DNA of 64,000 bases, taken from contig QQVD01000018.1 in the NCBI GenBank assembly GCA_003388555.1, positions 1,274 through 65,273 of the forward strand. Direction: 5' to 3'. Under the pieces are notes generated by a model that saw nothing but the letters and a program-made list of their open reading frames with translations, did no database searches and was not told where the DNA came from. Below are positions 39,117 through 63,939 of the stretch, in pieces. Every line of letters starts with the position of its first letter. Position 1 is the first letter of the stretch. The position numbers and the translations under genes were made by a program. The stretch comes from Acidobacteriota bacterium (GTDB lineage Bacteria > Acidobacteriota > Thermoanaerobaculia > Multivoradales > Multivoraceae).

Positions 39117-41156
39117 ATGGCCGAACAAGACAACCTGCTCGACCACCTCCGAGGTCCGTTCAACTTCCTCGATCCGTCGATCGAGTCGATCCGACTTCAC
39201 CACGCGCGGCTCTCCCAGCTCCTGCCCAGGCCGCGTCCGATCTTCCTGCGCGACGGAGCCGCGACGCCCGTCATGGGCTTCCCGGTCCAGCGCAATCGCA
39301 GCGCGCTACGTCTCGCCGAGGCGCTGCGACTCTACATCGAGTCGGAGGAGCGAGCACAGGTCGCCACCCTGACCGGCGGCGCCGGCTTCGACCTGCGCTC
39401 GCACCAGATGGCCTGGTCCAACTACCGCGAGCAGCTCGAGGAGGTCAGCGAGAACCTGTTCAGCTCGAACTACGGGCGGAGCTTCCCGCAGATCTTCTGG
39501 CTCGACCACTCTCGTGACCTGGTGACGATCCTGCGCGGCACGCCGAGCCGGATCCGCCGTCTCGACCTGCAGATCGGCAAGCGTCGAGGAGAACAGCTGC
39601 GCTACACGGTGCTGTTCAAGTTCCTGCAGCGGGTGATCGCGCTGTGCTACGACCTCGCGGCGAGGATCTCACGCGAAACCGGGCAGACCGAAGAGGAGCT
39701 GTTCCCGCCCATCCTGACCCTGATGCAGGACAACGTGCTGATCCTGACCGAGGACCACGTCGGGCGGGAGCTCGAGGAGCTGGTCGGCTACTTCCGCGGC
39801 TACCTCAAGATCGACGGCCGCAGCCTCCTCTATCGGGTCGCTCTCCTGCGCAGCTGGCACCGCGAGACGCTGGCAGCGGACCCCTTCCTGCGCAGGACGG
39901 CGGAGACCCTGCACCCGGGAAGCGACGAGGCTCCCGACTCGCTCCTCCATCGTCAGGGCTACCTGGACATCCTGTCAGGACATCCCGGTTACGATCCGGC
40001 CGCCCTGCTCGGACCTCCGGAGATCCGGCTCTGGTCGGCCCTGCTCGAGAAGCTCAAGGAGTTCGAGCTACTCAACGCCACCCGCCGGCTGATCGTCGAG
40101 GTCACTGCGTCCGAGCGTGGCTATCTCTGCCCGGGCAGCGCCGCGAAGCGACTCGGGCTGCCGCCGCAGGACGTCGAGCTCTTCCGCGAGACCCGCCCAC
40201 TCGACTTCTCCGCACCGTGGATCATCGATCCCGAGGTCTCGCGCGTCGGCCTGATCTACGACATCACCGAGTTCTCGGCCATCGTCAGCATCGTCCGCCT
40301 CGCCGATCGCGCCTCACAGAACGACTCGTACCGGCAGATCTTCACCTTCCAGCACCGGATCAACCAGATCGCTCGCCTGCTCCGGTTGCGCATCGAGAAG
40401 TACCTCGGCGACGGCGCCTTCTATTCGGGGCGCAATCCGCTGCGCATGCTGATCGCGGCGCTGCGCATGCAGCGGGCCTACGCGGCCGCGGTGGCTGACG
40501 GATTCCCCTTCGACCGCGGCATGCGCCTGGCGCTGAACTTCGGTTCCTACCGACTGCTGCCGCTCGGCGGCAGCAACACAACCGAGGAGGAGCGCTACGA
40601 GGTCTACGGCCACGGACTGGTCGAGCTGTCGCGTCTGGTCAGCGGCAAGAAGGGGCTCGACTTCGAGGAGATCAAGTCGGTGCTGATCGCGCGCGGCTAC
40701 GACGAGCTGGCGGTCAACGACTTCTTCGCGCCGGTGACCGCGGACAGCGCGCGCGCCACGTTCGATCGCGCCAAGGGCGAGTTCTTCGCCGAGCTGAGCC
40801 GTGACGGCGCGCTGGTCAACGAGGGGATCGTCGCCACCGAGCGCTTCCTCGAGGAGCTGCAGCGGAGCCGGCACCTCGGACCGCTGTTCAAGGCGCAAAG
40901 GGACGATCGCAGCTATGTCGTCGTCGCCCAGCCCGCCGGTCCGGGCGAACGTGAGCTCATCGCGGTGAGGCGGCTCGGCCTCGCCCGTCTCAAGGGCCTC
41001 GACAAGCTCTCGGTGTACGAGGTGCTCGACGCCACCGGTTGGGAGCTCAAGCGCGAGGACCAGCTGCACCGCGTGCCGCTGGTGCAGGCGATCAACGAGT
41101 CGTTCACCGCCAGCCTCGCTCGCGCCGGCCGGCCGACGCCGATCCGTCCGCTCTAG
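39117..41156 (+). CDS. Hypothetical 679-aa protein with a central region resembling a class III adenylate/guanylate cyclase catalytic domain (divergent)
   Basis: G/C-dominated third codon positions across the ORF, as in the other coding regions here. Residues about 365-510 carry CHD-like motifs in the correct order: [11 protein letters not shown] (cf VTVLFADIVGFT), [10 protein letters not shown] (cf KTIGDAYM), [10 protein letters not shown] (cf RIGIHTG) and [16 protein letters not shown] (cf YDVWGDTVNLASRME, with Asn replaced by Glu). Confidence 0.75.
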
Positions 41157-46258: not shown

Positions 46259-48268
46259 ATGGCCGGGCCGCGGGCCGGGAGCCGTCCCGGAAGCCTGATC
46301 CGGGCCCTCCTCGCTCTCGCCCTCGTCTGGTCCTGCCTCGTCGCCGCCGCCAACCTGCAGCGGGCGTGGCGCGGTCGGCCGCAGGATCCAGGCCTGGCTC
46401 CCAGCCTGTGGCTGCTGGGCGGGCCTCAGTCCGAGGCCCTGCGGGCCGAGCTCGCGGCGGTCGCGGCCCGCGCTCCACGTGGCGCGACGCTGGCGCTGAC
46501 CTCGTTCCACGTGCCGTCGCACGAGCTGCACTTCGTGCACCTGTGGACGGCCTTCCTGCTCCCCCACCACCGGGTGGTGCGCGACGATGCTTCCGCCGGC
46601 GCCGACTACCTGCTGGCGTGGCCGGCGCTGGAGCCCGGGCTCGACGCCGGACCCACCACCGTCGCCGGCGGCGCCGGGGTGGAGCTGGCCGGAGCCGTGC
46701 ATCGCAGTCCGGCGCTGTCGCTGCACCGGCTCGCCTCCTCCGCCCCGCCTCCCGCGGACGGCGCCGACGAAGGGCCGGCGATCTCTCGCGCCGCTCGCGC
46801 CGACGCTCCCAGACTCGATCCGGTGCATCGCCGGCTCGACGCCGGGCGCTGGCTCTCCTGGGCCCTGTTCGTGCTGGCCACCACCATGACCGGCGCCGCC
46901 GCCGTGCACCTGCCGCGACGGCTCGCGCGGCGACGCGGCGACGCGCCAGCCGACGAGCCCGCGACGGGCGAGCCCGCCGTCTGGGGCCTGTGGCTGTTCT
47001 CCGGAATCGTCACCCTGTTCGTCCTGCTGGCCTGGAGCGACCTGATCGGCCTGCGATGGAGCCCTGCCGCGCTCCAGGCCGCCCTCGCGGTGGGCGCAGC
47101 GCTGGGCGTCGTCGCCCTCGTCCGGTCGCGGCGAGGCCCCGGACCCGGCCGCGGCCCGAGGGCGTCGGGCATCGCCGGCGGCGAGCTCGGCATCGCGCAT
47201 CTCGCCGCGACGCTCGGCGCCCTCGCCTTCGCCGCGCTCACCTGGCGGCTCGACGCGACCCTCTCCGACTTCGTCTACCACTGGGGGCTCAAGGCCAAGC
47301 GACTGGCGCTCACCGGCGGCGTCGACTTCGGCTTCCTCGCCGATCCGGCGGCCCAGTACGTCCACCCCGACTACCCCAACCTGCTGCCGGCGCTGTGGGC
47401 CGCGGAGGCGATCGCCACGGGCTCGCTGCACGAGCGCATGGCCTTGCTCTGGTCGCCCGTGGCGCTCGCCGCCCTCCTGGCGGTGGCGGTACGCGCGTCG
47501 ATCGGTGGCCGTGGCGAGTGGCCGGGGCGGTCGTCGAGGCAGCTCGGCGCCGCCTTGACGGTGACGACGAGCGCCGGCTTCGCCTGCGGCTACTACCAGG
47601 CCGGCTCGCCGGATCTGTTCCTGGCCGCCGGCGTGCTGCTGATCGCCTGCGCCCTCTGTTCACCGTGGTCCGGGCAACCGACCCCTGGCGGCGACGGTCT
47701 CGCCGCCAACGGCACCCTCTTCGCACTCGGCGCCGGCCTCGCTGCCGGCGCCAAGATCGAGGGCGTCGTCTTCGTGATCCTGGCGAGTGCGGTCCTGGCC
47801 ATCGACGGCGCTCGATGCGTGCTGCGCGGACGCGCGGTGACGGCGGTCGCCGGCTCGGCGCTGCCGGTGCTGACTCCGGCACTCCTGGTGGCCTTGCCCT
47901 GGCTGTTGGGCGTGCTCCGCCACGACCTGTTCCAGCCCGGCAACACCGCCGGCCTGGATCCCACCCGTCTCCCGGTGGTGCTCGCCGCCACCTGGCGGGC
48001 AGCCTGGATCCCGGCCTGGGCGGGCCTGCCACTGCTCGCCGTCGCCGGTCTGGCGGTGGCGTTGTCGCGGCGCTCGACGCGGCCCGTCGCGGCCCTGCTC
48101 CTGGCTCAGCTCGGCTTCTACCTCTACGCCTACCTGGCGACGCCGTTCGACGTCGAGGCGCTGGTCGCCACGAGCTTCCCGCGCCTCCTCTACCACCTCG
48201 TGCCGGCGGCGCTGGTCGTCACCACGATCGCGCTCGTGCCAGACTCGGAGCCCGATCCTGGCCGGTGA
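46259..48268 (+). CDS. Polytopic integral membrane protein (unknown family, possible GT-C-like glycosyltransferase), likely co-transcribed with the radical-SAM gene
   Basis: 669 aa, N-terminal TM, central soluble segment, then about 10 TM helices. Starts 11 nt after the radical-SAM stop. Confidence 0.65.
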   Translation: MAGPRAGSRPGSLIRALLALALVWSCLVAAANLQRAWRGRPQDPGLAPSLWLLGGPQSEALRAELAAVAARAPRGATLALTSFHVPSHELHFVHLWTAFLLPHHRVVRDDASAGADYLLAWPALEPGLDAGPTTVAGGAGVELAGAVHRSPALSLHRLASSAPPPADGADEGPAISRAARADAPRLDPVHRRLDAGRWLSWALFVLATTMTGAAAVHLPRRLARRRGDAPADEPATGEPAVWGLWLFSGIVTLFVLLAWSDLIGLRWSPAALQAALAVGAALGVVALVRSRRGPGPGRGPRASGIAGGELGIAHLAATLGALAFAALTWRLDATLSDFVYHWGLKAKRLALTGGVDFGFLADPAAQYVHPDYPNLLPALWAAEAIATGSLHERMALLWSPVALAALLAVAVRASIGGRGEWPGRSSRQLGAALTVTTSAGFACGYYQAGSPDLFLAAGVLLIACALCSPWSGQPTPGGDGLAANGTLFALGAGLAAGAKIEGVVFVILASAVLAIDGARCVLRGRAVTAVAGSALPVLTPALLVALPWLLGVLRHDLFQPGNTAGLDPTRLPVVLAATWRAAWIPAWAGLPLLAVAGLAVALSRRSTRPVAALLLAQLGFYLYAYLATPFDVEALVATSFPRLLYHLVPAALVVTTIALVPDSEPDPGR

Positions 48269-50959: not shown

Positions 50960-51553
50960 CTAGTTGACCTGCACCTGGGCGTCGATCCAGCCCAGGAAGT
51001 CCATCACCTGGCCGTTGCCGTCGACACCGTCCTGATCGACGAACTCGAGCCGGCCGGTGCCGCTGGCGGCGCTGGTGAAGCGCAGCGACAGGACCACCCC
51101 GCTGCCCGAGGTGCCGCCGACGTCGCCGAGGCGGGAGACTCCGAGCACCAGCTCGCCCTGACTCTGGAAGACCTGGAGCGAGGTGTCGACGGCGCCCGAC
51201 TGGCTGAGGAAGGTGCCTTCGCTGCCCTCCTGGAAGTTGAGCAGACCGGCCGGATACAGGAGCGTGAAGGCGAGGCCGTAGACGTTCTGCAGGTCGGTGC
51301 CGACGACCTCGAGCAACAGCTCACCCGCGGCGCCGCTGCCGGCGCGCAGCGACACCGTGCCGGCGCTCGCGGCGCTGTCGCTGGTGACCACGATGCCCGG
51401 CGGTGGAGGCGGAGGCGGCGGTGGAGGCTGGGTCGGCGAACCGCCGCCGCCGCCACCTCCGCAGGCCACCAGCGCCGCAAGCGCCAGCCCGTTCAGCAAC
51501 AAGACCGCGTACCTCGCGAGCCGCGCCGTTCGCCCTTCGGACCTCACAGTCAT
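50960..51553 (-). CDS. Hypothetical lipoprotein with Gly7-Pro10 tether
   Basis: ORF trimmed to ATG 51553 (MTVRSEGRTARLARYAVLLLNGLALAALVACGGGGGGGSPTQPPPPPPPPPPGIVV…), then a beta-rich domain. 4-nt overlap with def. Confidence 0.55.
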   Translation of the reverse strand: MTVRSEGRTARLARYAVLLLNGLALAALVACGGGGGGGSPTQPPPPPPPPPPGIVVTSDSAASAGTVSLRAGSGAAGELLLEVVGTDLQNVYGLAFTLLYPAGLLNFQEGSEGTFLSQSGAVDTSLQVFQSQGELVLGVSRLGDVGGTSGSGVVLSLRFTSAASGTGRLEFVDQDGVDGNGQVMDFLGWIDAQVQVN

Positions 51554-52104: not shown

Positions 52105-53049
52105 TTATTGCATGGTCGAGCCGGCGCGCGACCGCAGCTTGCCGCACATCTCCCGCAACTCGGCATCGTTGCCGAGGCGACGCAGCCCGGAGACCAGGGC
52201 ACGTGGGTCCGGGTTGCCCACCAGGCAACGCTCGAGACCCTCCCGATCCAGCACCAGCACGCTGCCGTTGCCGGTCGGCCGCAGGCTCACCGCCCAGGGT
52301 TGGCGTTCGAGCAGGCTCGACTCTCCCAGCAGATCGCCGATCGTGAAGGTGCGCAGGCTCGTGTCGCGGCCACCGGTCGGCGCCGGCGCCAGGGCCTCGA
52401 TCTCGCCGAAGGCGATCAGGAAGGCCCGTTCGTCGCTGGACTCGGCGCGTACGAGGGTCTCGCCGACACCGAATCGACGCAGCTTCATGTTCGAGAGCAC
52501 GCGCACGATCTGCTCGCCAGGGAGCTCCCGCACGACCGGCGAGCTGCTCAACCGGTCCCAGATCTGCTCCAGCTCGATCGCCGCCGTCGCGACCGCGCCG
52601 CTGCCGCTCCGACTGGCGCTGCTGAGCGCGGCGACCGCCTGGCGGCGCACCTGATCCAGCTTGCGCTTCTCCTCCAACAGCAGGAGCCGCTGCTTGATGC
52701 TCTCTTCGAGCGGCGCGATGCGCTGGCCGCGGGTGAGCGCAGCATGGGCGCGATCGAGGAAGCCGTCGCGCATCATCTGATCGGCCGCCCCGATGTACTC
52801 GACGATCGCCTCGTCCCGCTGTTCGAGCCGCTCGAGGACGCCGGCGAGCTTGAGCCGCGCGTGGTGGTCCTGCGGTGCCGTCTTGAGCCGTTTGCGGAGG
52901 CGCTCCTCGGCCTCGGCGAAGCGCCCGAGGACGATCAGGTCATCGGTGGTCGGACCGGTATCGCGGTCGCGGGCGCCGGGCCGACGCTTGCCCTTGCCGC
53001 CACCCTTGTCGGCGGGCTTCTTGGAACGGCCCTGGAAGAACGACTTCAC
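52105..53049 (-). CDS. Cyclic-nucleotide-binding domain protein (N-terminal helical/TPR-like region, C-terminal cNMP-binding domain, no HTH)
   Basis: cNMP-binding signature (…FGEIEAL…RTFTIGDLLGESSLLERQPWAVSLRPTGNGSVLVLDREGLERCL). Start set at GTG 53049 (GAGG 6 nt upstream). GTG 53082 is an alternative. Confidence 0.68.
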   Translation of the reverse strand: MKSFFQGRSKKPADKGGGKGKRRPGARDRDTGPTTDDLIVLGRFAEAEERLRKRLKTAPQDHHARLKLAGVLERLEQRDEAIVEYIGAADQMMRDGFLDRAHAALTRGQRIAPLEESIKQRLLLLEEKRKLDQVRRQAVAALSSASRSGSGAVATAAIELEQIWDRLSSSPVVRELPGEQIVRVLSNMKLRRFGVGETLVRAESSDERAFLIAFGEIEALAPAPTGGRDTSLRTFTIGDLLGESSLLERQPWAVSLRPTGNGSVLVLDREGLERCLVGNPDPRALVSGLRRLGNDAELREMCGKLRSRAGSTMQ

Positions 53050-53586
53050 CCGGCACCTCGACCCCGTGAATCGATGAGACACCCCTGGGGAACCCGGCGA
53101 CGAGTCGCCACACGGTGCACCGCGTAGCCTGGGCCAAGGGGCGATCCTCCACTGTACGCGCCACTGCTGACGGCGGTCAAGGTCCGCCTCCCGGTGTCGT
53201 CCTCTCGTGAGGACGGCATGAGACCCGCAGAGAACGGTCGCCGGACGTCGCTCCTCACGGTGCCTGGAGTGCTCGGATCGCGGATCCCCGGGATGGCTGC
53301 TGGGTCCCTTCCCAGCCGCCAGATCGCCGCCTGGCGCCGCCCGCGCCGGCGGTGCCGAGCCGAGGTCGGTCGGGGTCGCGAAGGAGCTCGGCTTAGATCG
53401 CGCTACGTCCCGTTCCGCGGGGGTTTGCCTGGTGTGGGGCCATCGGCGGGCGAGCCGACGAGGTGGCTGCGATGCTCGCCCGGCACAATGCGTGCGCGCT
53501 CCCGCCGGCGGCCACCCCTGGATCCAGCGGCCGCCTGGGCGCCCGGCATGTGGGCCTTGCCGTAGGCTCGACCGGACTTTCGGTCC

Positions 53587-53602
53587 TGGAACACATGTTG
53601 CA
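53587..53602 (+). promoter_or_regulatory. Candidate sigma-54 (-24/-12) promoter TGGAAC-N5-TTGCA
   Basis: cTGGAACacatgTTGCAcc with correct GG/GC spacing, 74 nt upstream of ATG 53676. rpoN is encoded in this window. Confidence 0.45.
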
Positions 53603-53675
53603 CCGGATGTCCGGCGTGCGGCGGATCGCGGCGAACTGCGACGAGCCGGCACCAGAGACCGAGGAGGCTACCGCC

Positions 53676-56450
53676 ATGACCCTTGACCGCAACGATCACT
53701 CCATCGACCGCGCCGAGCGTCCGTCACGCGAGCGCTGGCGCCGACCCTCCCTCCCGGCCGTCGCCGCGGCTCCGCCGCAGCGCCGCGTCGCGGGGATCAC
53801 GCTGCTCGGCGGGCTCCTAGCGACGCTCGCGAGCGTGCTGCTGGCGGCCGGCGCACGGGCCCAGGACTACGCCGACACGGCGGACGAGCGACGCTACAGC
53901 TCGGTGCGCTTCCTCGAAGGCCCGGCTTCGCTGCAGACCGAGGAGAGCGCCGAGCGCATCGACCTCGAGCCCAACTACCCCATCGTCACCGGCGACCGGC
54001 TGTGGGTGCCGCCCGGCTCCCGCGTCCTGGTCGCCCTCGCCGACGGCAGCCTGCTGGCTGTCGGAGGCGGCACCGAGGTGGTCTTCGACCAGCTCGCGCT
54101 GTCGCTCGACAGCGAAGAGTCGACCTCGCGCCTGCGTCTGCTGCAGGGGCGTATCGACCTCAACGTCGACGAGTTCTTCCAGGCGCCCGAGCTGCCCATC
54201 GTCGACACGGCGAATGCCCGTGTCTTCGTGCAGTCCGAATACGCCCGCCTGGCCATCGGCGCCAACCACTCGGACTGGACCGAGGTCACCACCCGTGACG
54301 GCCTGGCCGAGGTCCTGACCCCCAACGGCTCGTCGCTGGTGCGAGCCGACGAGGAGCTGACCGTGCGCGGCATCCACGACACTGCGGTCGATCTCGCCCA
54401 GGCGGCTCCGCTGCAGGATCTCGAGCTGTGGGCCGGCGACTCGGCGGTGCGGTTGGCTCGTGGCACTTTCGACGAGCTCGAGGCGCCGCTTCCCGAGACC
54501 GCCCAGCTCGACGATCACGGTGACTGGGTCGTCGTCGAAGGCAGCCGCGCCTGGCGCCCGCGCGTCGCGACGGACTGGCGGCCGTACTCCTCCGGGCGCT
54601 GGGTCCATACCCCCACGGGGCTCTACTGGGCCACCTACGATCCGTGGTCGCCGGTGGTCTACCACTACGGCGGCTGGGACCTGCACCCGCGTTGGGGCTG
54701 GGTCTGGTACCCGGGCTACCGCTACGCGCCGGCACACGTCGCCTGGTATTTCGGGCCCGACTACTACGGTTGGATCCCGACCACCTATTACCGACGCCAC
54801 TACGGCTTCCATCTCACCGGCTTCGGATTCCGGTTCGGCATCTGGGGCCGCGCCGGCGGCTACTGGGACCCGTTCTACGACTGGACGTTCTGCCCGACCG
54901 GGTACTTCGGCGCGCGCCGCGGCTACCACCACTACCGCTCGGGTCGCTACTACCGTGACCGCGGCCACGGCCGCCTCGGTGACGGCTACGTCACCACCGA
55001 CACCACCTACGTGACCAAGGCCCACCTGCGCGATCCCGACCGCATCTACCGCGATCTCGACCGCGACGGCGGACGACGTGACCTGGTCGACGTCAACCCT
55101 CTGCTGGCCAGGGGCAAGGAGGTCCCGGAGTCGGTCCGCAAGGCGGTGCTGGTGCGCGGCGACAGTCAGACGGTGACACCGAAGGTGCGCCGCGGTGTGC
55201 TGGCCTCGGGCGAGGTCCCGAGAGCGAGCGAGCGTGGTGTCAAGGTGGCCACAGGCACCCGCTCCAGCCTGCGCTCCACGAGCACGGTGAACGGCAAGAG
55301 CACCGGCAGCCTGCGGTCGGTGCCGCGCAGCGACGAACGGCGCGAGCCGGCAAAGGCGATCGTCGACGGCGTCCGCCAGCGCAGCGACTCCGGCGCGACC
55401 GCGAAGGTGCCCGCCACCTCCTGGCGAGGACCGGACACCGACGGCCGGGCAGCGACGAGCGCCCGCGGTCGAGTCGACGGCCGCGGCGACGACGGCAAGG
55501 GCCGCACCACGGTCCGCGGCGTCGAACGGGGTGCCACACCGAGCACCGTGAGCAGTCCGCGGGGCAGCGTGCGCGACAGCGGCAACCGTGAGAAGACGAC
55601 GCCGCCGTCCCGCTCGGCGCCGACGATGCGCTCCACCGCCCCGCCCAGGACGGCGCAGCCGCGCACGGTTCCGTCGCGCCCGAGCACGTCGCAGCCGAAG
55701 GCGACGCCGTCGCGACCCAGCTCGGCACAGCCCAAGGCGGCGCCGTCGGCTCCTCCTCGCAGTGCCTCGCCGCGGTCGAGCTCGCCGCCGCCGCGGCAGG
55801 CGTCGCCGCCGCCCTCGAGCCCACGAGCCACGCCGAAGAGCTCCAAGCCGCCGGCCGCTCGTGAGGTCAGCGGCGTGCGCGGCGCCAGTCGGGAGCAGGT
55901 GAGCCAGCGCGCCAAGACCAGGGCGCTGCCGCGCTCCAGCCGGTCGCCGGGCTCCTCCCGCACCGTGAGTCGCTCGCGCGCCTCACGACCGGTAGCCAGC
56001 CCGCGCCGCCCGGCGCCCAGCTCCCGCTCCAGCGTGCGCGACGAGTCTTCCCGCACCAGGCGTCCGTCGGCACGGTCGTCGGCGGCGAGCCCGTCACGGA
56101 GACCGGCGAGCAGCTCCGCGAGTCAGGTGCGCTCCAGCGGCCGGTCGGGCTCGGTCTCTGCGTCGCGACCGGCGCCGTCGACGCGTGGCCGCAGCAGCGT
56201 GCGCTCGGCGCCGAGTCGTTCCTCGACCGTGCGTTCGGCGCCCCGGAACTCGGCGCCGCGACCGACGGTGAAGAGCTCGCCGTCTCGGCGCTCGACCTCG
56301 GCGCGCCCCTCGAGCCGCCCGTCGTCGCGTCCTTCGGCCAAGAGCAGCTCGCCACCGCGCCGCTCTGCGGCCTCGAGCGGCAGGTCCAGCTCGCGGCCGA
56401 AGCCGAGCGCCAGGTCGGCACGATCGAAGCGGCCGCCGGGCGGCGCCTGA
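53676..56450 (+). CDS. Large hypothetical protein: N-terminal signal/TM segment, FecR-like domain, Trp/Tyr/Gly-rich block, and a roughly 450-aa Arg/Ser/Pro-rich low-complexity C-terminal tail
   Basis: ATG 53676 with GAGGAGG 8 nt upstream. G/C-dominated third codon positions along the whole 2.8 kb ORF, including the RS-rich tail. N-terminal part resembles FecR (DRLWVPPGSRVLVALADGSLLAVGGGTEVVF). Residues about 310-440 are extremely rich in W/Y/G/H/R. Tail is built from SR/SP/RP-type low-complexity sequence (…SRSRASRPVASPRRPAPSSRSS…). Confidence 0.7.
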   Translation: MTLDRNDHSIDRAERPSRERWRRPSLPAVAAAPPQRRVAGITLLGGLLATLASVLLAAGARAQDYADTADERRYSSVRFLEGPASLQTEESAERIDLEPNYPIVTGDRLWVPPGSRVLVALADGSLLAVGGGTEVVFDQLALSLDSEESTSRLRLLQGRIDLNVDEFFQAPELPIVDTANARVFVQSEYARLAIGANHSDWTEVTTRDGLAEVLTPNGSSLVRADEELTVRGIHDTAVDLAQAAPLQDLELWAGDSAVRLARGTFDELEAPLPETAQLDDHGDWVVVEGSRAWRPRVATDWRPYSSGRWVHTPTGLYWATYDPWSPVVYHYGGWDLHPRWGWVWYPGYRYAPAHVAWYFGPDYYGWIPTTYYRRHYGFHLTGFGFRFGIWGRAGGYWDPFYDWTFCPTGYFGARRGYHHYRSGRYYRDRGHGRLGDGYVTTDTTYVTKAHLRDPDRIYRDLDRDGGRRDLVDVNPLLARGKEVPESVRKAVLVRGDSQTVTPKVRRGVLASGEVPRASERGVKVATGTRSSLRSTSTVNGKSTGSLRSVPRSDERREPAKAIVDGVRQRSDSGATAKVPATSWRGPDTDGRAATSARGRVDGRGDDGKGRTTVRGVERGATPSTVSSPRGSVRDSGNREKTTPPSRSAPTMRSTAPPRTAQPRTVPSRPSTSQPKATPSRPSSAQPKAAPSAPPRSASPRSSSPPPRQASPPPSSPRATPKSSKPPAAREVSGVRGASREQVSQRAKTRALPRSSRSPGSSRTVSRSRASRPVASPRRPAPSSRSSVRDESSRTRRPSARSSAASPSRRPASSSASQVRSSGRSGSVSASRPAPSTRGRSSVRSAPSRSSTVRSAPRNSAPRPTVKSSPSRRSTSARPSSRPSSRPSAKSSSPPRRSAASSGRSSSRPKPSARSARSKRPPGGA

Positions 56451-56560
56451 CCGAGCCGCGAAGCCGCGACGGCTGGCGGGTCACGCCCCCGGCCGTCCGT
56501 GCCGATGCAGGAGCTGCCAGCTCTGCCGGAGTGGAACGAGATGCCAGTACACTCCCGCGC

Positions 56561-56830
56561 ATGGGCTGGTGGCGCTCCCTGCGGCGGGTCCTGCCGCGTC
56601 TGGTCTTCGTCCTCTACTGTCTCGAAGCGGGTCTGTTCCTCTGTCTGATCCCGTGGCGAGACGGCTGGGTCGTGCTGGTCGATCAGTTCGCGGTCGACGC
56701 GATGAGGCCCTACCTGCGGTCTTCGTTCATTCGCGCCCTGATCTGCGGCTTCGGCGTCGTGCACCTGCTGTGGGCCCTGCACGATCTGCACGACCTGCTG
56801 CGGCGCAGCGAAGATGTCGCACCCGGTTGA
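56561..56830 (+). CDS. Small hypothetical membrane protein (2 predicted TM helices)
   Basis: MGWWRSLRRVLPRLVFVLYCLEAGLFLCLIPW…, about 89 aa. Overlaps the thiE start by 17 nt. Confidence 0.4.
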   Translation: MGWWRSLRRVLPRLVFVLYCLEAGLFLCLIPWRDGWVVLVDQFAVDAMRPYLRSSFIRALICGFGVVHLLWALHDLHDLLRRSEDVAPG

Positions 56831-57509
56831 CGGTCGGCGCGAAGCGGCGCCGCGGCTGCTCGCGATCAGCGACGGCCGCTCGAGCGGCGATCCGGGCGAG
56901 CGCCGCTGGTCCGACCTGCTGGGGCGCCTCGAAGCGATCGGCGCCGCGCTGCAGCTGCGCGAGAAGCACCTCGACGACCGCCGTCTGACGGAGCTCGCGA
57001 CCTGGATCCGCCGTCGCTTCAGCGGCCCGCTGATCTTGAACGGCAGGCCGGATCTGGCCGTCGCGGTCGGCGCCGACGGCGTGCACCTGCCGGCAGACGG
57101 TGCGCCGACGAGGACGGTGAGGGAAATGCTCGCGAGACACGGCGGAGCCTGCCTGCTCGGGCGCTCGTGCCACGTCGAGAACGAGGTTGCCGCAGCCGCG
57201 GCGGAGGGCGCCGACTACGTCGTCTTCGGACCCGTCTTCGCGACCCGCAGCAAGAGCGGTTCTGCTACCGGAGGTGTGGACGCCCTGCGAAGGGCGGCCC
57301 GCCATCGCGTGCCGGTGCTGGCGCTCGGCGGGATCTCCTCCTCCAACGGGGCTTCAGCCCTCGCCGCGGGCGCTCACGGGCTCGCCGCCATCACCGCCTT
57401 CGCCACCGATTCCGAGGCCCATGCCCTGGCGCGCCTGGTCGATCACTCCGCGGTCGTCGAGCCCACCGCCGCCGAGCTCGCTCCAGGCACCGACCAGGTC
57501 GGCAGGTAG
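56814..57509 (+). CDS. thiE: Thiamine-phosphate synthase
   Basis: 231 aa, ThiE pattern (…QLREKHL…ILNGRPDLAVAVGADGVHL…GADYVVFGPVFAT…PVLALGGI…). Confidence 0.86.
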   Translation: MSHPVDGRREAAPRLLAISDGRSSGDPGERRWSDLLGRLEAIGAALQLREKHLDDRRLTELATWIRRRFSGPLILNGRPDLAVAVGADGVHLPADGAPTRTVREMLARHGGACLLGRSCHVENEVAAAAAEGADYVVFGPVFATRSKSGSATGGVDALRRAARHRVPVLALGGISSSNGASALAAGAHGLAAITAFATDSEAHALARLVDHSAVVEPTAAELAPGTDQVGR

Positions 57510-58511
57510 CGGGGCCAGGTACTCCAACGGCCGCCCGCCGACCGGATGGCGAAGCGCCAGGGCCCAGGCGTGCAGAGCCGGGCGTTGCAATCCGACGATG
57601 ACTCGACGCGCCTCCGGCGAGCGCACGCCGCGATGCCGGCGGCCGCCGTACTGCTCGTCGCCGAGGAGCGGGTGGCCGATCGCCTCGAGATGCACCCGGA
57701 TCTGGTGGGTGCGGCCGGTGTGGAGCCTGACCCGGAGGGCACTCGCGGGGACGAGCTCGCTGACCGCCAGTCGTCGGTACTCGCTGCGTGCCGGGCGCGC
57801 GCCCGCGCGCACGGCCATTCGGGTGCGGCGACCGGGATCGCGGCCGATCGGCCGCTCGATCACGCCGTGGCTCGGGGTCCGTCCGTAGCACAGGGCCAGA
57901 TACACCTTGCCCACCCGACGGGCGGCGAACTGGCGCACCAGCGACTGGTAGGCCGCTTCCGTGCGGGCCACCACCATGACCCCGGAGGTGCCGACGTCGA
58001 GGCGGTGCACGATGCCTGGACGGCGCGGATGACCGACGTGCCGCAGCTCCGGGAACTGCGCCACGAGCCGGTTGCAGAGGGTGCCGGCGGGGTGCCCGGC
58101 GCCGGGGTGCACCACCAGCCCGGCAGGTTTGTCGATGACCACGAGGTGCTCGTCGACGTAGAGGATCTCGAGCCTGCCCGGCTCGGCGCTCAGCTCCTGC
58201 TCCTCCCGCTCGGCGGCGCCGCAGTCGAGCACGACGATCCGTTCGCCTCCCTCGAGTCGCAGGCTCGGCTTGGCCGGCTTGCCCGCGACGTCGACCATGC
58301 CCCCGCGCAGGAGCTGTTGGATCCGGTTGCGTGGACGCGAGAGGGCGCCGGCCAGGTAGCGGTCGATCCTCTCGCCGGCCGACTCGGCGGCGACCTCGAT
58401 CACGATCCGATCCGTCTGCCCGGAACCGCCGTCGCGGCGATCGCGCGCCGGTCCCGCCGGCTGATCCCCGTGTCCGTCCGCCGCCGCCCGCTCAGGCGCG
58501 CACGGACTCAC
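57354..58511 (-). CDS. rluD: RluD-family 23S rRNA pseudouridine synthase
   Basis: N-terminal S4 domain, catalytic HRLDVGTSGV motif, …HTGRTHQIRVHL…. Gly-rich C-terminal tail overlaps the thiE 3' end convergently by 156 nt. Confidence 0.86.
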   Translation of the reverse strand: MSPCAPERAAADGHGDQPAGPARDRRDGGSGQTDRIVIEVAAESAGERIDRYLAGALSRPRNRIQQLLRGGMVDVAGKPAKPSLRLEGGERIVVLDCGAAEREEQELSAEPGRLEILYVDEHLVVIDKPAGLVVHPGAGHPAGTLCNRLVAQFPELRHVGHPRRPGIVHRLDVGTSGVMVVARTEAAYQSLVRQFAARRVGKVYLALCYGRTPSHGVIERPIGRDPGRRTRMAVRAGARPARSEYRRLAVSELVPASALRVRLHTGRTHQIRVHLEAIGHPLLGDEQYGGRRHRGVRSPEARRVIVGLQRPALHAWALALRHPVGGRPLEYLAPLPADLVGAWSELGGGGLDDRGVIDQARQGMGLGIGGEGGDGGEPVSARGEG

Positions 58512-59034
58512 GCTCGTCCTCGGCCGCCGGCTCGGGAGCTGGCGCGAACAGCGACTCGACCACCAGGCAGACGATGCCGCCGGTGATCGCGCTGTCCGCG
58601 ACGTTGAAGGTCGGCCAATGCCGCGTGCCGACGTAGACGTCGAGGAAGTCGGTGACCGCCTGGAAGGCGATGCGGTCGACCAGGTTGCCGACGGCGCCGC
58701 CGAGCACCAGGGCCAGAGCGACGAGGAGGAGTCGCCGGTCGGGCGGAGTCCGGGCGAAGTAGATCGAGACCAGGATCAGCGCCAGGGCGCCGAACAACCC
58801 GAGGACCAGCGTGCCCACCAGCTCGCCCCGGCTCGGGAACAGGCCGAAGGCGATGCCGGTGTTCTTGACGTGGATCAGGTTGAAGAAGCCGGGAACGACC
58901 TCCACCGTCTGATAGAGAGCCCAGCCGCGCTCGATCGCCAGCTTGGTCCACTGATCGAGGGCGAAGACGAGGGCGGCGACAGCCAGCAGCCAGCTCTTGA
59001 TCGGGGAGCGGGTGCTGGTCTCGGCGTCGGGCAT
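58492..59034 (-). CDS. lspA: Lipoprotein signal peptidase (signal peptidase II)
   Basis: Start at internal ATG 59034 (MPDAETSTRSPIKSWLLAVAALVFALDQWTK…). LspA motifs (…NTGIAFG…FNVADS…). Confidence 0.9.
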   Translation of the reverse strand: MPDAETSTRSPIKSWLLAVAALVFALDQWTKLAIERGWALYQTVEVVPGFFNLIHVKNTGIAFGLFPSRGELVGTLVLGLFGALALILVSIYFARTPPDRRLLLVALALVLGGAVGNLVDRIAFQAVTDFLDVYVGTRHWPTFNVADSAITGGIVCLVVESLFAPAPEPAAEDERESVRA

Positions 59035-59142
59035 CGATCTTCTCCGTACGAACCAGCGGGCATCGTAGCGCACGGCCACGAGTGCGGCTGGAGCCGCGTC
59101 GGCCGCAGCGGTGCCGACCGGCCGCTCCGGTCGGTGCCTTCG

Positions 59143-60496: not shown

Positions 60497-60988
60497 TCAG
60501 CCGGCCGAGAGGCTGCGCGGCGCCTGAGCCGACGACGACTTGCCGGCGGCGCGGCCGGGATTCATCTCGATCTTGCCCTTGCAGAATCCGCCCTCGGCGA
60601 TCGCGACCCGCGGAGCGACAACGTCCCCCTCGATCGACCCCGAGGGCATCAATTCCACCTTCTCGCTCGCCGAGACGTTGCCCTTCAGCGTGCCGGAGAT
60701 GCGCACCGAACGGGCCGAGACGTCACCGACCACCCTTCCCTTGTCGCCGATGATCAGCTCGTCCTCGAGGTTGACCTCGCCCTCGACGATGCCTTCGACC
60801 AGGACCTGGCTGGATCCCGAGATGCGCCCTTCGATCTTCGACCCGGCGGCGACCAGCGTCTTCTGAGCGCCCGCTGCCTGCGGTCTCGCCGGAGCGCCTG
60901 GAGCCGCGGCGGCGGGCCGTCCGACCGGCGTCGGCTCTGGTTTGGGGGCGGGAGTCTGCGAGCTTCCATCGCGGCGGAAAATCGACAT
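60497..60988 (-). CDS. Bactofilin-family cytoskeletal protein
   Basis: 163 aa, Pro-rich N-terminal tail then repetitive beta-helix bactofilin (DUF583) repeats (…[54 protein letters not shown]…). Confidence 0.82.
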
Positions 60989-61789: not shown

Positions 61790-62845
61790 CTAGTCGCCCA
61801 TCATCAGGTCACCGAGCCCGCCGAGGACCGACCCCTCACCCTTGCGCTTGCCGCCCGCCTGTGGCGCCGCGGCGTAGACGCGCGAGGCCAGACGGCTGAA
61901 CGGCAGCGACTGGATCCACACTGTACCCGGCCCGGTCAGGGTGGCGAAGAAGAGGCCCTCTCCACCGAACAGAGCGGTCTTGATCCCCGGCACCATCTGG
62001 ATGTCGTAGTTGACGCTGCGGTCGAATGCGACCAGGCAGCCGGTGTCGAGCCTGAGGGTCTCACCGGCACGGAGCTCGCGCTTGACGATCGTGCCGCCGG
62101 CGTGAACGAAGGCGAGGCCGTCACCCTCGAGCTTCTGCAGGATGAAGCCCTCGCCGCCGAAGAACCCCGCACCCAGCTTGCGCTGGAAGGCGATGCCGAC
62201 CGCCACCCCCTTGGCGGCACAGAGGAACGCGTCCTTCTGACAGAGCACCGTGCCACCGTGCGCCGGCAGATCGAGCGCGATGATCCGCCCCGGGTACGGC
62301 GACGCGAAGGCCACCTTCTGACGTCCTCCCGAGCTGTTGCCGAACACGGTCATGAACAGCGACTCGCCGGTCAGCACCCGCTTTCCGGCCGACATCAGCT
62401 TGCCCATGAAGCCGCCGCCCTCCGACTGCGACGAGCCGTCTCCGAAGATCGTCTTCATCTCGATGCCCGGGTCCATGTACATGAACGAGCCGGCTTCCGC
62501 GATGCAGGCCTCGGCAGGGTCGAGGGTGATCTCGACGAACTGCATCTCCTCGCCGAACACCTCGTACTCGATCTCGTCGGCAGCCTGTCCGGCCGGCCGC
62601 GGAGTCCCACCGCCACCCGAGGCGGTGGCGCCGGCCGCACTGACCGGCGGCGGCGAAGCCACCGAGCCTCCGGCGAGCGCCTGCTTGAACTTGGCATGGG
62701 TGTCGATCGGCGCCCAGTTGTCCATCCCCTGCCGGAAGACGTGCACGCCCCCGTCGAGCTCACCGGCGCGGATCCTCGAGACGACGTCGTCCTCGCTCCA
62801 CGGCCCCCGCTGTTCACCGTTCACCGCTACGTACCACTCGCTCAT
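61790..62845 (-). CDS. TIGR00266/DUF124 (AIM24-like) family protein with N-terminal GYF-like DUF4339 domain
   Basis: Trimmed to ATG 62845 ([48 protein letters not shown]…). C-terminal region matches the DUF124 pattern (…[25 protein letters not shown]…[25 protein letters not shown]…). Confidence 0.78.
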
Positions 62846-63105
62846 TCCGAATTCCCTCTCTGATCTCTGGTTGCACGAATCGTCGACGATGCCCGGAGTC
62901 GGGCCGTCGGGCCGCGAGCACCTCGCGGCAGCGCCCGGCGCCTCGGGTGGCGGGCGCCGCGCGGCGCAGCCCGTGACCGTCCCGTCACTACCGTCGCCCT
63001 GCGCTGTCGGTTCGGCGCGGGGCAGCGAACGACGGCCCGGTGCATCCGGTGCATCGTCCCTGCGCCGATTGTAGTGCCCACGCCTCTCTCCTGCCGCCGA
63101 GCCGT

Positions 63106-63939
63106 TCAGCGGTCGGCGACGAAGCGCACCTCGAAGAGCCGTGGCCAGTTCTTCCCGGTGATCAGGAAGGTGCCTCGGTCGGCGCGGTGGGCGATTCCGT
63201 TGAGCACCTCGGCCGCCGCCGCCTCGGCCTCGGACAGCAGGCCGGAGGCGTCGATCACCGCGGTCACCGTGCCGCTGTCGCGGTCGATGCGGACGATCTG
63301 GTCGGTCTCGAACACGTTGGCGAAGAGCGCCCCGTCCGCCCACTCCAGCTCGTTGAGATGGCTCTGTGGCGAGCCGCCCCGCCACACCGACACGGTGCGC
63401 AGGCGCTCGAACGTGCGCGGGTCGTGCGCGGTGAGCAGGTGGGTGCCGTTGCTGACCCACAGGACGTCGCCATCGAAGGCCAACCCCCATCCCTCGCCAA
63501 GCAGCTTCCACTCCGGCAGCGGCGCGAAGTCCTCGAGGCGGTAGCGGAGCACTCTGCCCGAACGCCAGGTCAGCTGGATCAGCTCGTCACCTACCCGGTC
63601 CAGACCCTCGGCGAAGAGATCCTCCGAGAGACCGATCCGTCGCTCCGGCGCAGCGCCGAGACGGTAGCGGACGAGTCCCGACCTCCCGTAGCCTCCGTGG
63701 CTCTCGAAGATCCATCCCTCGTGGATCAGCAGACCCTGGGTGTAGAGCGACGGATCGTGCGGGTATTCGGCGAGGACCTCCACCCTCAGCCGCTCCGGCT
63801 GGGGCCTGGGACGCCCGGTCGCCGGCTCGACCTGCGGCTGCACCGCCGCGCTCGGGGCCGACGCGGCGGAGCCTCCTTCGCACGCCGCTACAGCGAGGAG
63901 TACGGCCAGGATCTGCGCCAGTCGGGTCGGCACGCTCAC
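63106..63939 (-). CDS. Glutaminyl-peptide cyclotransferase (bacterial/plant-type glutamine cyclotransferase), lipoprotein
   Basis: GTG start 63939, signal/lipobox (LLAVAAC), QC beta-propeller motifs (…[31 protein letters not shown]…). Confidence 0.8.

Follow-up and report, generated by a model that had tools for sequence, protein, structure and literature searches.

In this study, we analyzed a 64,000-nucleotide stretch of the genome of an Acidobacteriota bacterium (class Thermoanaerobaculia, family Multivoraceae; GenBank assembly GCA_003388555.1, contig QQVD01000018.1, positions 1,274 to 65,273; hereafter the window, to which all positions below refer), and focused on a gene on its plus strand (positions 53676-56450) whose product combines a FecR-like domain, a Trp/Tyr/Gly-rich module and a long cationic tail. 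We found that this is a real gene, whose product is a single continuous protein of the cell envelope of this uncultured, diderm acidobacterium, predicted to be exported by Sec, and that the protein is an ordinary member of a large family that is catalogued under the Pfam domain DUF6600 but unstudied, its tail being unusually long.

Domain architecture

The Trp/Tyr/Gly-rich block, which the original prediction had picked out by composition, proved to be real and to correspond to a catalogued domain: it scored 77.1 bits on Pfam DUF6600 (PF20245), whose curated gathering cutoff is 27 (E=1.2e-21; amino acids 276-370, profile positions 2-99 of 102). The match lies within a larger folded module (amino acids 267-495; positions 54474-55160, plus strand), in which DUF6600 is followed by a conserved C-terminal extension. 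Sixteen columns were invariant over 54 sequences (G, W, W, P, W, P, G, W, W, Y, G, W, W, V, W and P), and all of them are present in the window protein, which shares the W/G/P/Y pattern of the family. When modeled alone, the module reached a predicted local distance difference test score (pLDDT) of 88.6, the model consisting of successive beta-hairpins (G-x-W...G-x-x-W) and then helices, and no solved structural relative was found in a fold comparison. The module carries a net charge of +4 (family median +9, negative in 3%). A scan of the window protein against NCBIfam gave no match.

Ahead of this module lies an acidic all-beta domain at about amino acids 70-245 (positions 53883-54410, plus strand), which resembles FecR and the CJM subdomain of PupR. 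Its Pfam FecR match (PF04773) was barely over threshold (25.3 bits versus 24). The family profile also matched PDB 4m0h (E=3e-6), and an AlphaFold2 model of amino acids 63-500 (pLDDT 91.3, predicted template modeling score 0.89) gave a strong structural match between this domain and PupR's C-terminal domain for cell-surface signaling (CCSSD, PDB 6ovm). In size, the 136 residues that aligned match the CJM subdomain of PupR, residues 110-238 (PMC7186176). Both the Pfam match and the structural match thus bear out the FecR-like fold that had been proposed from sequence pattern. The head was negatively charged in 99% of the family (median -15; window protein, -19). A FecR-type Gly-Thr self-cleavage site was considered at GGGT (amino acids 129-132) and rejected, as these columns are not conserved in the family alignment.

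Distribution of the family

A first homologue search returned 54 proteins with FecR, DUF6600 and long tails, mostly from Thermoanaerobaculia metagenome-assembled genomes (MAGs). Precomputed Pfam annotation placed FecR together with DUF6600 in 40 of the 54 (385-861 amino acids), and some carry the NCBI name 'DUF6600 domain-containing protein'. An exhaustive search with the Trp-rich module retrieved 5,944 representatives at E<=1e-3, with 190 of them at E<=1e-30; the top matches were mostly 650-900 amino acids long, with the module at about residues 230-480. A FecR-like region was located about 600 nt upstream of the module in 56 of 80 genome loci. Distant members from Verrucomicrobiota, Ignavibacteria, Myxococcota and Chitinophagales had no FecR-like domain and kept the signal peptide, DUF6600 and a low-complexity tail.

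The original prediction had treated the three-part architecture as unrecognized, and in this respect it did not hold. The same order (signal peptide, FecR, DUF6600 and low-complexity tail) occurs across the closer relatives, the middle block is DUF6600, and relatives are encoded in more than 552 species-representative genomes, mostly of Thermoanaerobaculia, in which class the closer ones also share the gene neighborhood of the window. As to whether the protein belongs to a characterized family with this domain order, the family is catalogued and has the same order, but it is uncharacterized. In the literature that could be searched, we found no papers mentioning DUF6600, and nothing relevant on FecR proteins with disordered or Arg-rich parts, on FecR proteins of Thermoanaerobaculia, or on YXWGXW/WXXGXW repeats. 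The window tail, at about 430-445 amino acids versus a median of 287, is near the extremes of the family.

Some close relatives, including those at loci L010 and L012, were labeled Holophagales or Gemmatimonadota yet carry a Thermoanaerobaculia-type gene, and the Holophagales-labeled ones share Thermoanaerobaculia-type synteny too. The taxonomy labels of these MAGs may be inconsistent.

Gene start and reading frame

The gene, present in one copy in the window, is a single open reading frame (ORF) whose 924 codons are followed by a TGA stop. The coordinates given originally were exact, whereas the length given with them (925 amino acids) was not, the product having 924. A Shine-Dalgarno site read from the sequence, GAGGAGG (positions 53661-53667, plus strand), ends 8 nt 5' of the ATG at 53676, and because of this site we take that ATG as the best start, in preference to upstream GTG and ATG candidates; the longest version of the ORF begins at GTG 53463. 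Public gene calls for the same sequence (924, 947 and 992 amino acids) differ in start only, and the protein is deposited as REK10401.1 and REJ74236.1, both labeled hypothetical protein.

The reading frame of the tail was examined from several sides. First, a sequencing frameshift that would end the true gene before the tail could be excluded, because four assemblies agree without indels: the ORF was recovered in all four (L085-L088; besides the NCBI MAG named next, these are one Logan and two ENA assemblies) with 0-1 mismatches and 0 indels, and the NCBI MAG GCA_003385675.1 matched the window locus with 99.97% identity over 12 kb. Second, the GC content of third codon positions (GC3) was high along the whole gene (0.85-0.93), as had been noted originally. 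However, GC3 alone cannot prove the frame of the tail, as had been argued from it, because GC2 climbs to equally high values there (0.83-0.91) and antisense frames across the tail are open, both in the window and in the closest homologue. In the window, long antisense ORFs lie across the gene at 55166-56056, 55867-56562 and 53817-55025 (all minus strand), and one of them, 55166-56056, is gene-like in composition (GC1/2/3 of 0.76/0.65/0.88) and is open in the closest homologue too. In tblastn comparisons, the sense product was conserved at E=2e-38 versus E=6e-10 for the antisense product. We judged the antisense ORFs to be by-products of the high-GC (77%) Ser/Arg/Pro-coding strand and a trap for gene callers. 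Third, tails of 108-230 codons are retained in relatives whose loci have a GC content of 0.37-0.50, at which chance open frames that long are very unlikely. Thus, translation of the tail holds on evidence other than GC3: the assemblies without indels, the in-frame motifs described below, the sense conservation and the tails kept in low-GC relatives together establish its frame.

One homologue, P0015 (kin to P0011-P0013 and P0017), has an Arg/Pro/Gly/Leu-rich tail (RRREVRRPRRRLPPGYA...) where the others have PPTRVRSTPRSSTP repeats. Its tail reads like a frameshift within the repeat region, either an assembly error or real, and would reflect the same effect of open alternative frames as in the window.

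Export of the protein

The N-terminal hydrophobic segment, already noted in the original prediction, appears to be part of a signal peptide (amino acids 1-62; positions 53676-53861, plus strand), with an Arg-rich n-region, an h-region at amino acids 38-60 and then ARA/Q; the signal peptide and its cleavage were judged by hydrophobicity and AXA heuristics. The h-region is the sole hydrophobic segment of the protein (maximum Kyte-Doolittle 19-mer value of 2.18 at amino acid 38), and the family-wide pattern agrees: an N-terminal h-region was found in 162 of 165 full-length members, 156 of which had an AXA-like site and 4 a lipobox-like motif. None of the 165 had a second transmembrane (TM) segment, nor a 19-mer with a Kyte-Doolittle value above 1.6 past amino acid 90. 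The heuristics favor a cleaved signal peptide over an uncleaved single-pass inner-membrane anchor. The hydrophobic segment of the window protein is preceded by 37 residues, and the homologues inspected by eye had mostly short n-regions typical of signal peptides.

Because there is one N-terminal h-region with an AXA site and no second hydrophobic segment, the whole mature protein is predicted to be exported and soluble, which would make the tail extracytoplasmic; the export of a polycationic tail, which the original prediction had considered, is supported in this way. Two other sorting possibilities were rejected. A twin-arginine translocation signal ('QRRVAG') was not accepted, since the twin Arg is not conserved among homologue N-termini (by eye), and sorting signals with a C-terminal TM helix (PEP-CTERM, LPXTG and GlyGly-CTERM types) do not apply to a protein that has no C-terminal hydrophobic helix and ends in ...RSKRPPGGA.

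Composition and selection of the tail

The tail (amino acids 497-924; positions 55164-56447, plus strand) is a polycation rich in Ser, Arg, Pro and Ala that is predicted to be disordered from its composition and charge and from the AlphaFold2 model, in which pLDDT falls below 50 from amino acid 497 on. Profiling of composition and charge confirmed that it is extremely biased and highly positive: its net charge is +73, amino acids 521-924 contain 25% Ser, 18% Arg, 14% Pro and 11% Ala, and basic residues recur about every 4-5 positions, the longest gap without one being 10 residues. F, Y, H and C are missing, and W (0.2%), L (0.7%) and Lys (3.7%) are scarce. However, the earlier description of the tail as almost entirely SR/RS/SP/RP sequence was overstated, as RS and SR make up 43 of its 427 dipeptides (10%) and a single SRSR run is present.

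A tail is a general property of the family. Among 188 module-bearing members, 179 had tails of at least 100 amino acids and only 5 had tails shorter than 30. The 179 tails ranged from 104 to 527 amino acids and had medians of 287 amino acids, 18% Arg, about 4% hydrophobic residues (W/F/Y/I/L/M) and +0.11 charge per residue; only one was not net-positive. Net tail charge was positive in 99% of the family, the median being +32 and the highest value +77, and the split between acidic head and basic tail is conserved family-wide.

Over 72 loci spanning a GC content of 0.37-0.76, the basic fraction of the tail did not follow locus GC (rho 0.04), whereas K/(K+R) did (rho -0.48, p=2e-5), indicating that positive charge is conserved while the choice between Lys and Arg follows genome composition. 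Relative to the expectation from 77% GC, the real departures in the window tail were Ser (3.9-fold) and Lys (4.1-fold) on the high side and Gly (0.49-fold) and Leu (0.17-fold) on the low side, with aromatic residues, His and Cys near-absent. The core is under purifying selection, with a ratio of nonsynonymous to synonymous substitution rates (dN/dS) of 0.15-0.19. The tail itself is translated and under selection, and is not only a product of GC drift.

Motifs and repeats within the tail

Two short motifs stand out in the family tails. The first lies in mid-tail: the window sequence PAKAIVDGVRQR (amino acids 558-569; positions 55347-55382, plus strand) represents, in diverged form, the family motif P-x-R-R-V-L-D-G-I-R, for which a hidden Markov model (HMM) gave hits in 71 of 179 tails, typically mid-tail, and in 0 shuffled tails. 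The window copy scored 11 bits versus a threshold of 8 bits. The 14-residue island around it, PAKAIVDGVRQRSD, is identical in the 78%-identical homologue P0001, in a surrounding tail that is only about 44% identical. The second is a basic-PP motif at the C terminus, represented in the window by SKRPPGGA (positions 56424-56447, plus strand): 54 of 179 tails had [KR]x0-2PP within their final 10 residues, versus 10.8 +/- 2.9 for random internal 10-mers. P0001 ends in ...KPRKPPQE, so that both it and the window protein end in (K/R)(K/R)PP, and other clades have conserved endings of their own, namely ...(V/I)KRD(H) and ...RTPPFVP. The two motifs suggest that the order of residues matters at least locally in the family tails.

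Between these motifs, a 36-nt tandem repeat of 2.2 copies (positions 55671-55748, plus strand; Tandem Repeats Finder score 107, 83% matches) encodes PSRPS(T/S)(S/A)QPKA(T/A). In homologues, this part of the tail also holds tandem repeats, which are clade-specific.

Gene neighborhood and a small membrane protein

In the window, the gene is surrounded by purC, dnaB, a radical-SAM gene, cysS, def, a gene for a cyclic nucleotide monophosphate (cNMP)-binding protein, thiE, rluD, lspA and ald, and further by genes for a bactofilin, an AIM24 protein and a glutaminyl cyclase. This corresponds to a class-wide housekeeping block, in which cysS, a cohesin-like gene, def and a cNMP-binding/tetratricopeptide repeat (TPR) gene lie upstream and divergent, the DUF6600 gene is followed downstream by a small ORF of about 89 amino acids, thiE, lspA and rluD, and ald, the bactofilin gene, an AIM24/GYF gene and the glutaminyl cyclase gene come further on. 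No extracytoplasmic function (ECF) sigma factor, TonB-dependent transducer or secretion system was found in the window block or in the loci of relatives. At 29 non-syntenic loci, a Pfam scan of 108 neighbors brought out no partner or pathway as dominant; the highest counts were those of Metallophos (8), cNMP_binding (6) and MscS (6), and neither an ECF sigma factor nor a TonB-dependent transducer was among the 25 most-matched families.

The most persistent neighbor was the small gene (positions 56561-56830, plus strand), which encodes an 89-amino-acid protein with two predicted TM helices, a candidate inner-membrane partner. A Pfam scan assigned this protein to no family. Across 4 loci it has 26 invariant columns, including Y-C-x-E-x-G, P-W-R and G-F-G-x-V-H-x-x-W-x-x-H-D-L. 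An HMM search detected the small gene at 44 of 80 genome loci; at 41 of these it lies directly downstream of the DUF6600 gene and shares its strand, and it is kept at some loci without linkage to def and thiE. Conversely, all three look-ups that started from the small protein (3/3) led to an adjoining FecR/DUF6600 gene. In the window, the gap of 110 nt before the small gene contains no terminator-like site, and the gene overlaps the start of thiE by 17 nt. Among the 80 loci, it was missing in all members outside Acidobacteriota. The ending of the tail showed no clean correlation with presence of the small ORF (by eye); for instance, the Multivorans-like clade has the ending ...RTPPF(V/G)P or ...RTPPRL(S/R) whether or not the small ORF is present.

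Several further features of the block were observed. In the window, rluD and lspA form a pair on the minus strand (57354-59079), whereas in relatives L002, L003, L004, L089 and L091 lspA and then rluD follow thiE on the plus strand; by comparison of gene order, the window arrangement appears to be a local inversion in an otherwise conserved block. The divergent upstream ORF for the cNMP-binding and TPR-like protein spans 52105-53652 (minus strand), the real gene being probably about 52105-53050; tblastn found this gene upstream in 21 of 80 loci, and downstream on the same strand in two more. An ORF between cysS and def, at about 50960-51550 (minus strand), starts with a linker rich in Gly and Pro (GGGGGGSPTQPPPPPPPPPPG) and may be the counterpart of the gene that matches Pfam Cohesin (PF00963) at the same place in relatives (L089, L090 and L091). 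The bactofilin gene (60497-60988, minus strand) and the GYF_2 plus AIM24 gene (61790-63511, minus strand) belong to the same block in many relatives, bactofilin lying within the 6-kb flank at 17 of 80 loci. Elsewhere in the window, two plus-strand ORFs with good GC3, 39117-41156 (679 amino acids) and 46259-48268 (669 amino acids), had no Pfam match at E<=1e-3; the second is Ala/Leu/Gly-rich and has a signal-peptide-like N terminus.

Possible function of the protein

We tentatively consider the protein to be an envelope tether or scaffold rather than a regulator of iron uptake, a reading whose probability we would set somewhat below even. The folded head would dock on a specific envelope partner, either protein or glycan, and the aromatic beta-hairpin repeats suggest a glycan as its putative ligand. 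The tail, a flexible polycation, would make multivalent contacts with anionic material of the envelope, candidate ligands being peptidoglycan carboxylates, phospholipid or lipopolysaccharide (LPS) phosphates and acidic exopolysaccharide, and it would be long enough to span the periplasm. Binding of LPS, exopolysaccharide, polyphosphate or extracellular DNA, as proposed in the original prediction, would be plausible. The two tail motifs may act as specific docking sites, for which the small two-TM protein encoded downstream is one candidate receptor.

The closest functional parallel that we considered is offered by the extracytoplasmic intrinsically disordered regions (IDRs) of Bacillus subtilis RsgI and PBP1, which are polar, charged and poor in aromatic residues, were proposed to contact peptidoglycan multivalently and non-specifically, and still work when scrambled (PMC9732909). 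As in these IDRs, the sequence of the tails in the present family is poorly conserved and their composition is conserved. In contrast, the IDRs of RsgI and PBP1 are attached to an anti-sigma factor or a peptidoglycan synthase and not to a soluble FecR/DUF6600 head, their setting is not that of a diderm host, and the tails studied here are strongly net-positive and contain two conserved short motifs, which argue for at least some sequence-specific contacts. By extension, the tail may also be likened to the Lpo-type reach-through linkers of Gram-negative bacteria.

A number of observations weigh against a tether or scaffold. First, periplasmic and cell-surface locations are indistinguishable by sequence, and the housekeeping context of the gene indicates no pathway. 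Second, the small gene is absent at 36 of the 80 loci, including those of a whole close clade, and is therefore no obligatory partner. Third, part of the extreme composition of the tail is mutational bias, because Arg, Pro and Ala are near the default for 77%-GC DNA (observed/expected 1.03, 0.84 and 0.76, respectively). Fourth, the tail evolves fast: it is about 44% identical to that of the closest homologue versus 74-82% in the core, and its dN/dS is about 0.6, an unreliable value given the ambiguous alignment of low-complexity sequence. Finally, the tails of relatives at a greater distance are weakly charged or polyampholytes (net 0 to +0.08 per residue), and thus the strong polycation character is limited to clades near the window.

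Alternatively, the protein could be a secreted or surface matrix protein that crosses the outer membrane, whose head anchors it to the cell surface and whose tail binds extracellular DNA, acidic exopolysaccharide or host and mineral surfaces, or nucleates mineral or silica, as Ser/Arg- or Ser/Lys-rich peptides do. It appears to be exported and not a lipoprotein, its Ser-rich polycationic tail would be compatible with the binding of polyanions, and the family has clade-specific tandem repeats, as do many surface proteins. However, this explanation is unlikely: there is neither a C-terminal-TM sorting signal nor, in any member, a hydrophobic segment past amino acid 90, no secretion-system gene is linked, the gene resides in a conserved housekeeping block and not in a biofilm or exopolysaccharide locus, and its most frequent neighbor encodes a small inner-membrane protein.

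The protein might also act as a sensor of envelope state or a reach-through adaptor, in which the tail threads or fills peptidoglycan pores, its motifs reach an inner-membrane partner and the head binds an outer-membrane component, so that the two membranes would be linked, in analogy to the disordered regions of RsgI and PBP1 or to the Lpo lipoproteins. This would fit the composition class of the tail, which matches the described extracytoplasmic IDRs (PMC9732909), and the FecR/CJM fold, a periplasmic protein-docking module in cell-surface signaling (PMC7186176), as well as the co-located two-TM gene, the conserved docking-like motifs and a tail of about 430 residues that would far exceed what is needed to span the periplasm. 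We regard it as distinctly unlikely, since an output domain, transmembrane or cytoplasmic, is lacking in the protein, the small partner is often absent and carries no recognizable signaling domain, and no regulator or peptidoglycan synthase is consistently linked.

It is improbable that the tail is a largely functionless, GC-driven extension, or in part an artefact of gene calling or frame, with only the FecR and DUF6600 core being of importance. In favor of such an explanation are the agreement of Arg, Pro and Ala with base composition, the dN/dS of the tail, its variable length and the alternative and antisense frames that are open at this GC content, and the seemingly frameshifted tail of P0015. 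Against it stand the indel-free assemblies, the tails of at least 100 amino acids in nearly all members and their retention at low GC, the GC-constant basic fraction with Lys replacing Arg, the excess of Ser with near-absence of aromatics, Leu, His and Cys, and two motifs far above shuffled or internal controls. The artefact version is already largely refuted.

That the protein is a FecR-type anti-sigma factor or cell-surface-signaling regulator of iron uptake is very improbable, despite the Pfam FecR match and the strong structural match to PupR. What it has in common with FecR/PupR regulators, to which it does not belong, is the periplasmic all-beta CJM/FecR subdomain. These regulators start with a cytoplasmic anti-sigma domain of about 80 amino acids (PMC7186176), whereas the N terminus of the window protein is a signal peptide only, and Pfam detected no domain besides FecR and DUF6600 at E<=1. 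Where PupR has its membrane anchor, the window protein has a cleavable-looking signal peptide, and in place of the STN subdomain (STN/DUF4974) it has the DUF6600 module and then the disordered tail; in PupR, binding of the transducer requires both CJM and STN (PMC7186176). In addition, FecR/PupR regulators are linked to an ECF sigma factor and a TonB-dependent transducer, and neither accompanies the gene in the window or in relatives.

The original prediction had also likened the tail to eukaryotic RS domains and protamine/H1 tails, with which it shares high Ser and Arg and high positive charge. The analogies failed on closer comparison: SR/RS proteins have runs of RS dipeptides and an RNA recognition motif (RRM), whereas the window tail has one SRSR run and the protein no RRM or other nucleic-acid-binding Pfam domain, and protamine/H1 tails have access to cytoplasmic DNA, whereas this tail is Lys-poor and predicted to be exported. 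A cytoplasmic, nucleoid-associated protein, the other possibility raised originally on account of the positive tail, is hardly credible for a family with a conserved signal peptide and a FecR-like domain of a kind that is periplasmic.

Implications

Taken singly, the gene is ordinary, since its family is already in Pfam, is named by NCBI and shows the same domain order in hundreds of genomes. As a family, these proteins represent a sizeable blind spot: their conservation and synteny extend over an acidobacterial class that is widespread in the environment, they hold a confidently predicted domain that has no solved structural relative, and they export a very long, basic disordered region whose charge is under selection, a kind of region little studied in diderms. 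It is possible, if on balance doubtful, that the FecR-DUF6600-tail proteins form an unrecognized class of diderm envelope proteins, with a structurally new domain of Trp-rich beta-hairpins, a Sec-exported, disordered polycationic region of hundreds of residues that would work as electrostatic glue or spacer between layers of the envelope or as a bridge across it, and two motifs that would dock the tail to a dedicated small inner-membrane protein. If so, the split between acidic head and basic tail might also drive head-to-tail self-assembly in the periplasm. The two conserved motifs and the candidate small membrane partner provide experimental handles, and, if the protein does act as a tether or bridge, models of how diderm envelopes are held together would gain a building block of a new kind.

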